Under the pieces are notes generated by a model. It searched no databases and was not told where the DNA came from. It saw only the letters and a program-made list of their open reading frames with translations. Made by a program: the position numbers and the translations under genes. From a virus (Duplodnaviria > Heunggongvirae > Uroviricota > Caudoviricetes), in the IMG/VR virus record IMGVR_UViG_2526164692_000012: DNA of 32,856 bases. The stretch is one strand, 5' to 3'. Numbering within the stretch: the first letter of the stretch is position 1; every line of letters starts with the position of its first letter. Below, in pieces: positions 6,901 to 8,880 of this stretch.

Positions 6901-8880
6901 TTAATTGTGCTCCTTAGCAAAGCGCAAGCTACCTGCGCTTAATACTGCAGATAACGTATCTCCCACTCTAGTCACACTTAAGTTGCTAGTTCCTGCAATG
7001 TAACTAACAGTTGTCGTTGTTGCCAGTGTCATAACTATTGGTATAGTTATGACTCGTTCTGTACCTCCGCTATCAACAAACTGAACAGATAAAAACTGAA
7101 ACCTTCTATTTATTTTATATGAAAATGATAATCCAGATATGGATAATAAACCACTTTGTCCTATTTTTATATTCCAATCAGAAAAATCAGTTATGTTAGA
7201 TGGGTCTATATTATTTTGCGAGTACCATGATGTTATTGCGCCTGATGATGTTTTTCCTTTAAAATAAACAAATGAACTACTTGCTTTTTTAAAATTATTA
7301 TCACATATGATAACCACCTCTTGAGTTGATAGTTTAGTTTCATCATAGAATACGCTGGTAAGTACTGCGTCATCTGCGTTAACACCCCGTATCTCAGAAA
7401 TCTTAGTCACACCAGCCTTGTCAGTGTCTTCCGCTTTGTTTATGAGAGAGTCTGTATTGTTTACCCACGCAGACAGCACTCTAGCCACAGGGGTGTTATA
7501 CTGACGCATCAATTGCGAAACACCAGAGATAATACCTGCCTTTAAAGTGATTTCCTGGCAATTGTTGCCGTAAGCAAGGATTGGTTTATTCACCCCATCC
7601 CATCTATAATTGCCAACTTCAACATCAATTCGTCCACCACTGCACCATACAACAGCATTTGTTTGTCCTCCGTCAAACTTAACCCCATAAACAGCACCAA
7701 CTTTAACAAAAGCGTAGCGTTCGGCGTTTATTTTCATTTGAAGCGGGTTGTTGCTGGTTCCCGTGACGTACCCAATATCTATACGGCAATTATCTCCTGC
7801 GCCATCTACGTTAATGCCGCGGTGGTCAGATCCAATAACCCCGCCAGAGCCGACAACGCTACAGTTTTCACAAGTAAAGAAACCAATAGGGTTGTTGTTG
7901 TGCGGTTTAGAATGAATGGAGTTATATTCTGTACCTATCTTGCCGTTAAGAATGTAGGTAACATTTTTCATAACAGCTGTAATTGTGTAGTTATTGCCAT
8001 CCCAAACCGTTGCATCAGGGTTAAGAAAATGTGCAAAGGACCACATACCCCCGGAGTTTAACCCCATAATTTCTGGCCCTACCGTGGGGTCATCGTAACG
8101 CCCCATAACTGTAACCCCAGCTTCGTGGTGTATTTCTATATTATCTCGTAATGGATGAATAGAGCCAAGAACATAAAAAGTACCTGTTGCACCATATTCA
8201 AATTTACTGAATCTTGTGTCTCTTACCAGTTTTTGAATTACATTACGGTTATGCGCGGCGTTTAGCGGAACATATTCACCTTCAATAATGCCAGCGGAAG
8301 CGAAATTAGGCGTCATTAAAATAAGATACCCACCAACTGCAGAAATATAAAATATAGGTGACTGTGGTTTTTCAGTTGTAAACACCCAATCTGTTACAAC
8401 TGGAACATTATAATAATAAGTTCTAACCTTTTTCCCATCTGTTAACCCTAATATTGATTGGGCCTGTTCAACGGATGAGCATTCGAGAATAGCACCACCA
8501 ACGATAATGACTCCTGCGCTCCCCTGTAATTCTTGCCGTAGCTGATCAGGATCATACTTCAACACATTCGGAAAATAGAACTGCTGCGAACCATACGCAT
8601 CATAAACAGCCATAGAATGGCCTTGCACAGTTACGAACTTGGCAATCTGTCCGTTATATACAGGATAACCAGCAGCGTTAATGATGATTGGTTGCGAAAC
8701 AGGAACGTGAGAGCCGTCTTCGTTCTCCACATAAACCTGAATCTGGTTTTCAGGATTTACCGGGTCAGTGTCAATTTTACCGATATAAATTTTGCCATTG
8801 GCAACCGCTTTAAAAGAACGCGCCATAGTGAAGAGTTGCGAAGGCATGCTTACCACAACATTTGCGGTGATATCTGTCAT
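6901..8880 (-). CDS. Tailspike protein, 659 aa: P22-gp9-type N-terminal head-binding domain with a divergent receptor-binding domain
   Basis: First ~110 aa ([43 protein letters not shown]...VLKYDPDQ) are near-identical to the P22 tailspike N-terminus as I recall it; the rest diverges from the P22 sequence. Confidence 0.85.

Follow-up and report, generated by a model that had tools for sequence, protein, structure and literature searches.

A chimeric tailspike in a P22-like prophage of Escherichia coli O104:H4, and its probable O104 receptor-binding module

The virus record IMGVR_UViG_2526164692_000012 (hereafter the window, 32,856 nt in total) contains an intact 659-aa open reading frame (ORF) with an ATG start at positions 6901..8880 on the minus strand. 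This ORF, the only one at that position, encodes the tailspike that is the subject of the present analysis. The gene is 100% identical to the copy in the 2011 Escherichia coli O104:H4 outbreak genomes (e.g. NC_018658.1, 1599129-1601108; product WP_000129924.1), and the copy in the enteroaggregative strain 55989 is 98% identical. The window is the reverse complement of the corresponding NC_018658.1 chromosome region. According to the RefSeq annotation of this identical region and ARAGORN, it contains a P22-like prophage inserted at tRNA-Arg(CCT), which carries genes for P22-type portal, coat, gp4, gp10, needle and ejection proteins, ant/arc, the tailspike, an AT3-SGNH acyltransferase and IntS. 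The tailspike gene is placed as in the gp9 class, namely at the right end of the P22-type late region, after immI (ant/arc/mnt) and before a conversion gene, the integrase gene and the attachment (att) site. The tRNA-Arg(CCT) attachment site was located by ARAGORN at 3298-3372, with att core repeats at 3358-3372 and 31153-31167. The RefSeq annotation places the prophage integrase gene intS at 3534..4691 (plus strand). The acyltransferase gene, which is convergent with the tailspike gene and encodes a putative O-antigen acetylase (EGR74046), was identified at 4920..6830 (plus strand) by the domains PF01757 and PF19040.

The head-binding (virion anchor) domain of the tailspike comprises residues 1-113 (8542..8880, minus strand), as delimited by a Pfam profile, by identity to Sf6 and P22 and by nucleotide matches. 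Pfam Head_binding (PF09008) spans residues 1-113 over the full length of the profile (E=2.7e-67, 224.6 bits) and is the only domain detected in a Pfam scan of the 659-aa protein. The domain shares 106 of 113 residues (94%) with Sf6 gp14 and 87 of 112 (78%) with P22 gp9. An earlier reading of the window, made from sequence only, had described the first ~110 residues as almost identical to P22 gp9; the P22-type assignment is certain, but the near-identity applies to Sf6 gp14 and not to P22 gp9. In a sequence search of all PDB chains, matches were confined to residues 1-118 (Sf6 gp14, 7sg7; P22 gp9, 2vky, 2xc1 and 1lkt; and related chains), except for a lone match with E<0.001 extending past residue 118, which was to WceF (6tgf; residues 7-153, E=4.5e-10); none of the matches was to a tailspike receptor-binding domain. 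In a search of phage DNA, nt 1-354 of the gene were 88-93% identical to the head-binding regions of HK620, Sf6, CUS-3 and IME10. The nearest head-binding DNA was that of E. coli P22-like phages and prophages (HK620, CUS-3 and IME10), with 91-96% identity over nt 1-354, and the matches to HK620, CUS-3 and Sf6 stop at nt 339-354.

The junction and linker (residues 114-128; 8497..8541, minus strand) lie right after the conserved YDPDQ motif and were placed by the start of homology to phage CLB_P1, by low model confidence and by the positions of published fusion primers. From residue 114 onward no sequence similarity to P22 gp9 was found, the phmmer match to 2xc1 (P22 gp9, 666 aa) covering residues 2-117 only. 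The complete divergence that had been noted after the head-binding domain is thus real and begins at about residue 113-118. At the sequence level, the C-terminal part does not align throughout with P22 gp9, and the protein is not an orthologue of the P22 gp9 endorhamnosidase, homology across ~120-666 being absent. Homology to gp17 of the T7-like Kayfunavirus CLB_P1 begins at L114 (LRQEL versus LRSNL), and residues 114-659 form an unbroken alignment with gp17 residues 214-758, with 78% identity over 546 aa. By region, identity is about 97% at residues 176-520 and about 45% in the last ~135 residues. In the phage DNA search, nt 376-1570 were 88% identical to CLB_P1, which was isolated on strain 55989 and infects O104:H4, i.e. 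the same host serogroup. The homologous receptor-binding module of CLB_P1 is anchored by a T7 gp17-type N-terminus on an Autographiviridae virion, whereas the anchor of the tailspike in the window is PF09008. When residues 117-659 were searched against 5.8 billion proteins, 35 homologues sharing 31-100% identity were obtained, which come from Escherichia, Hafnia, Providencia, Enterobacter and Shewanella, and their N-terminal anchors are of at least four kinds (PF09008, PF18668, the T7 fibre domain PF03906 and others).

Differences in CLB_P1 annotation were also noted. The 2012 record, KC109329.1 (L001, 2326-4604), lists gp17 (325 aa) and gp17.1 (432 aa), whereas the re-sequenced genome, OZ035730.1 (L004, 826-3102), contains a single ORF of 758 aa; the gp17/gp17.1 break falls in the middle of the beta-helix domain and not at the anchor junction. 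The arrangement of a split adapter and a separate receptor-binding protein in CLB_P1 (Pas et al. 2023, PMC10408124) was considered and rejected in view of this single ORF, and the adapter interpretation probably rests on a 2-nt sequencing or frameshift error in KC109329.1.

Two layers of mosaicism were found among alleles of the tailspike gene. Between strain 55989 and the outbreak strain, the receptor-binding domain is nearly identical (synonymous divergence, dS, 0.017), as are the acyltransferase gene and the flanks, whereas the head-binding alleles differ (dS 0.31), which indicates a recent recombination joint near nt 340. This joint, the CLB_P1 alignment with its T7-type anchor and the varied anchors among the homologues bear out the modular exchange that the sequence-only reading had proposed. 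In the second layer, the allele of NCTC9104, TOK-001 and A11 is 92-100% identical over nt 1-586 and ~100% identical from nt 1937 through the whole acyltransferase gene, but only 52-84% identical in between, and the MRE162 allele contains a divergent patch at nt 1037-1570. Diversifying selection was considered as the origin of the divergent alleles and ruled out, because the ratio of nonsynonymous to synonymous divergence (dN/dS) never reaches 0.3 (0.03-0.27) and dS has come to saturation in the divergent helix; recombination between old alleles fits these values. As judged from such comparisons, the divergent alleles are old ones reshuffled by recombination, and recent positive selection is not their source. 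The GC content is 0.338 in the C-terminal domain (residues 521-659), 0.342 in the acyltransferase gene, 0.431 in the beta-helix and 0.484 in the late genes, the C-terminal domain thus resembling the acyltransferase gene in composition and not the helix or the late genes. The compositional break inside the tailspike gene coincides with the end of CLB_P1 nucleotide similarity at nt 1570.

The same gene was located in the outbreak draft genome by Scholl et al. (2012, PMC3303846) as EGR74047 (659 aa); EGR74047 and WP_000129924.1 are the same protein as the one described here, with no difference. These authors noted that the first 113 residues are 79% identical to P22 and that the other 546 resembled nothing then known, and described the locus as a prophage remnant with a downstream putative acetylase (EGR74046) that might acetylate O104 (PMC3303846). 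In their fusion constructs the R2 pyocin fibre carried residues 114-659 or 118-659, and the pyocin with the tailspike part was named AvR2-O104.1 (PMC3303846). Both published fusion primers have gene-specific parts with exact matches in the window (minus strand, 8519-8538 and 8507-8526). All O104 strains tested and one O9:K9 strain were killed by the fusion particles, strains of the other serogroups tested were not, and mutants resistant to the fusion had lost the O-antigen (PMC3303846). In 2025 a further R2-O104 tailocin was constructed. An O104 subtype of receptor-binding proteins, common to the lytic phage CLB_P1, was established by Pas et al. (2023, PMC10408124); its members share at least 30% identity over at least 60% of the receptor-binding domain. 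The tailspike in the window belongs to this subtype, with coverage of 100% at the 78% identity over 546 aa to the CLB_P1 receptor-binding protein.

The published O104/K9-specific killing, together with the co-occurrence of the gene with O104 wzy (see below), supports the earlier presumption that tailspike specificity is matched to the host O-antigen. The protein is very probably the tailspike (gp9 equivalent) of a P22-like (Lederbergvirus-type) prophage at tRNA-Arg (argW) of E. coli O104:H4, and a natural chimera with an O104 receptor module. This high confidence covers the identity and the receptor, whereas catalysis is rated lower. The chimera, the O104 specificity and the neighbouring acetylase had already been in print, with the specificity tested, in 2012; these points are correct but not new, and the additions of this study are the predicted fold, the conserved residues, the allele mosaic and the co-occurrence statistics. 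A tailspike decides which bacteria a phage or an engineered pyocin attacks, and this tailspike was used for an O104-specific bactericidal agent shortly after the German outbreak of 2011.

The structure of residues 114-659 was predicted with AlphaFold2 using a 31-sequence alignment. The model (predicted local distance difference test score, pLDDT, 91.7; predicted template modelling score, pTM, 0.85) begins with a disordered linker (pLDDT <50 at model residues 1-15), which leads into a small beta subdomain and a capping helix; a long parallel beta-helix follows, with a beta-sandwich at the C-terminus. The small N-terminal beta subdomain and the capping helix (residues 129-219; 8224..8496, minus strand) are modelled with pLDDT >90, the strands lying at model residues 19-75 and the helix at 92-106. 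The right-handed parallel beta-helix (residues ~220-519; 7324..8223, minus strand) is presumed to be the O104-binding and catalytic body, and it is followed by the beta-sandwich (residues 520-659; 6904..7323, minus strand; strands at model residues 407-545) and the stop codon (6901-6903). In a Foldseek search of the PDB, the top ranks were occupied by CBA120 TSP2, Klebsiella K2 depolymerases, WceF, HK620 and Sf6, all at about 10% identity, the best match being CBA120 TSP2 (6w4q/5w6p; E=4.6e-7). The structural similarity is generic to beta-helices (7-13% identity), and the majority of the structural neighbours are glycosidases, lyases and depolymerases. A BFVD search found no further characterised relative, and a profile search of PDB sequences with the receptor-binding domain gave anchor-domain matches only. 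The comparison with known tailspikes that had been suggested as a check thus points to a tailspike-type beta-helix unrelated in sequence to those of P22, Sf6, HK620 and CBA120, and the modelled protein has the C-terminal parallel beta-helix that characterizes the P22-like tailspike class.

The most conserved patch of the receptor-binding domain (7804..7899, minus strand) comprises N328-N329-N330 (7891-7899) and S351-D352-H353...D359 (7804-7830), located on successive helix rungs; the spacing of 24 residues between N328-N330 and D352-H353 corresponds to one rung. The patch residues are invariant or conserved in at least 30 of 31 sequences across homologues of 29-78% identity, and D264, D504, R212, R245 and R459 are further invariant or near-invariant polar residues. 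This conservation suggests N328-N330, D352-H353 and D359, possibly together with D264, as a candidate active site. Of interest in view of the sialylated substrate was a match of residues 328-361 (7798-7899) to the sialyltransferase family GT29, which scored 14.9 bits (E=0.018; cut-off, 23 bits) and recurs below threshold in 7 of the 31 homologues. It was rejected as a chance match on three grounds: its score is too low, the homologues do not count as independent, and beta-helix strands, unlike the GT29 fold, are predicted for the region. The resemblance of residues 328-361 to sialyl motif L, visible by eye, is presumably also due to chance in this beta-helix context.

In the mechanism that we propose, residues 1-113 dock the tailspike, probably as a trimer, onto the P22-type tail hub, and the part after the YDPDQ hinge is a horizontally acquired receptor-binding module. 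Its target is the sialic-acid-containing O104 O-antigen, a polysaccharide identical to that of the K9 capsule. The beta-helix would bind the O104 repeats (Gal-Neu5Ac-Gal-GalNAc), and the module would probably act as a trimeric endoglycosidase that hydrolyses one backbone linkage, so that shortening of the O104 chain would let the virion reach the outer membrane. Several points weigh against this reading. No Pfam family reaches threshold on residues 114-659 and no enzyme family signature (GH28, GH110, PL6 and others) was detected there, leaving the receptor-binding domain outside any Pfam or CAZy-type family. The candidate catalytic residues were singled out by conservation only, and a literature search found no published enzymatic assay of this protein, so the spike may be a binding-only one. 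In addition, the prophage is defective, and the tailspike gene therefore probably yields no virions in this strain.

The prophage (~27.8 kb) contains an IS1 element at ~25380-26077, which joins the early-left genes (kil, cIII, erf and abc) straight to the terminase region and stands in place of the missing immunity, replication, nin and lysis genes; lysis genes are still present at this locus in strain 55989. The Georgian O104:H4 strain 2009EL-2050 (NC_018650.1) and FDAARGOS_348 (NZ_CP022086.2) lack the first 265 nt of the tailspike gene, and the gene is annotated as two pieces in TOK-001, indicating that it is decaying independently in some lineages. Both the lost prophage genes and the damaged copies are in line with a decaying relic that has no present function and owes its chimeric look to its prophage past only. 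We consider this explanation doubtful, although it is the strongest of the rivals, because the outbreak clone carries the ORF undamaged and with 100% identity among its members, dN/dS between lineages is well below 1 and the synthesised protein is functional (Scholl 2012, PMC3303846); the role in the present host is also a separate question from the identity of the protein.

As an alternative to backbone cleavage by the proposed endoglycosidase, the tailspike may be a lectin-like spike that binds only, or may remove O-acetyl groups from Neu5,7,9Ac3 without cutting the backbone. Such a spike is unlikely in our estimate. Known deacetylating tailspikes carry SGNH-type domains rather than beta-helices, catalytic triad residues are normally distant in sequence and not adjacent, the structural neighbours mostly cleave polysaccharides as glycosidases, lyases or depolymerases, and sensitivity does not differ between strains that have the acyltransferase and strains that lack it. 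That the domain is a polysaccharide lyase, working by beta-elimination and not by hydrolysis, is very improbable on chemical grounds, because O104 contains no uronic acid.

Among characterised tailspikes, Sf6 gp14, an endorhamnosidase encoded next to Oac, has a head-binding domain with 94% identity and likewise a beta-helix receptor-binding domain, and Sf6 shares the gene order of tailspike, O-antigen acyltransferase, integrase and att site. However, gp14 shows no sequence similarity past residue 118 (9-10% identity by Foldseek) and acts on another substrate, and Sf6 Oac is an AT3-only protein, in contrast to the AT3-SGNH fusion found here. The endorhamnosidase P22 gp9 (head-binding domain, 78% identity) has the same virion role and the beta-helix architecture in common with the tailspike, but lacks sequence similarity after residue 117 and targets another O-antigen. 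CUS-3 of E. coli K1 is also a P22-like prophage with a sialic-acid polysaccharide target and an O-acetyltransferase (NeuO) associated with a short tandem repeat, and its head-binding domain is 91% identical in nucleotides. That domain is fused to an endosialidase, which is a beta-propeller enzyme, unlike the beta-helix described here, and NeuO belongs to a different acetyltransferase family and contains heptanucleotide repeats inside its coding sequence. The O157-specific CBA120 TSP2 (6w4q/5w6p), an O-antigen depolymerase, likewise has a beta-helix fold, but it differs in its low identity (about 10%), its PF18668-type anchor and its substrate.

The acyltransferase is a fused AT3-SGNH protein of the OafA/OafB/GtrC type (PF01757, E=7.8e-24; PF19040, E=1.8e-32) and is 33% identical to O-antigen acetylases encoded at the same position in P22-like Salmonella phages (g341c gp15 and BTP1 GtrC). 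Its gene and the convergent tailspike gene are separated by 70 nt, and no intrinsic terminator was found between them. Of 5,426 complete E. coli genomes, exactly 24 contain a copy of the acyltransferase with at least 99.5% identity, and the receptor-binding domain was found in the same 24 genomes, including by blastn at a sensitivity of about 65% identity. O104 wzy occurs in 37 genomes, among them all 24 carriers, so that the carriers represent 24 of 37 genomes with O104 wzy versus 0 of 5,389 others (Fisher p=5e-57, with lineages that are not independent). The acyltransferase is most likely a lysogenic-conversion enzyme, with putative O-acylation of the O104 unit as its function. Genome data combined with the tables of Scholl et al. 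show that the O104 strains 94-3024 (RM13368) and RM9387 lack the acyltransferase, yet were killed like carriers. In that assay, recognition therefore did not depend on any modification by the enzyme and was not blocked by it, and acylation thus appears neither necessary nor inhibitory, which is a caveat to linking the acyltransferase with tailspike specificity.

In NCTC9104 and MRE162 (locus positions 6001-10900), the tailspike-acyltransferase pair resides in a P22-like prophage beside dacD/sbmC, and not at argW. This prophage has no integrase but retains a ~45-nt stub of the intS 3' end beside the repeat described below. The presence of the pair at a second chromosomal site with the intS stub indicates that the cassette has been transferred between prophages, and the acyltransferase gene and the tailspike 3' end move together as a single cassette.

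Tandem Repeats Finder detected a tandem repeat with an octanucleotide unit, (GTTTAATA)5.5, at 4678..4721 (plus strand), between the end of intS and the acyltransferase gene. It begins in the last intS codons, ~200 nt upstream of the acyltransferase start codon. The number of GTTTAATA copies is 3 in TOK-001; 4 in 55989, NCCP13905 and NCCP15648; 5 in the outbreak clone, the 2009 Georgian strains and 1070/13; 9 in NCTC9104; 12 in A11; and 13 in MRE162. The flanks are identical across O104 lineages, and the copy number is stable within the outbreak clone. The (GTTTAATA)n tract might tune or phase-vary expression of the acyltransferase, and the linked enzyme and the variable repeat might alter the O104 surface of this highly virulent lineage. 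Two more novel readings are that the receptor-binding domain may found a glycosidase family, so far uncharacterised, cutting sialylated O-antigen with a conserved centre formed by an Asn ladder and Asp-His-Asp on a beta-helix, and that (GTTTAATA)n may tune or phase-vary O104 acylation and thereby modulate phage or immune recognition. Neither has been described for O104, and we regard these readings as unlikely, roughly on a par with the lectin-like or deacetylating spike.

Three small plus-strand ORFs are present at 10338-11411, between the ejection-protein genes and the ant region. They encode an Arc-family protein, a 104-aa protein with a signal-like N-terminus and a 161-aa lipoprotein, and may represent moron or superinfection-exclusion genes.
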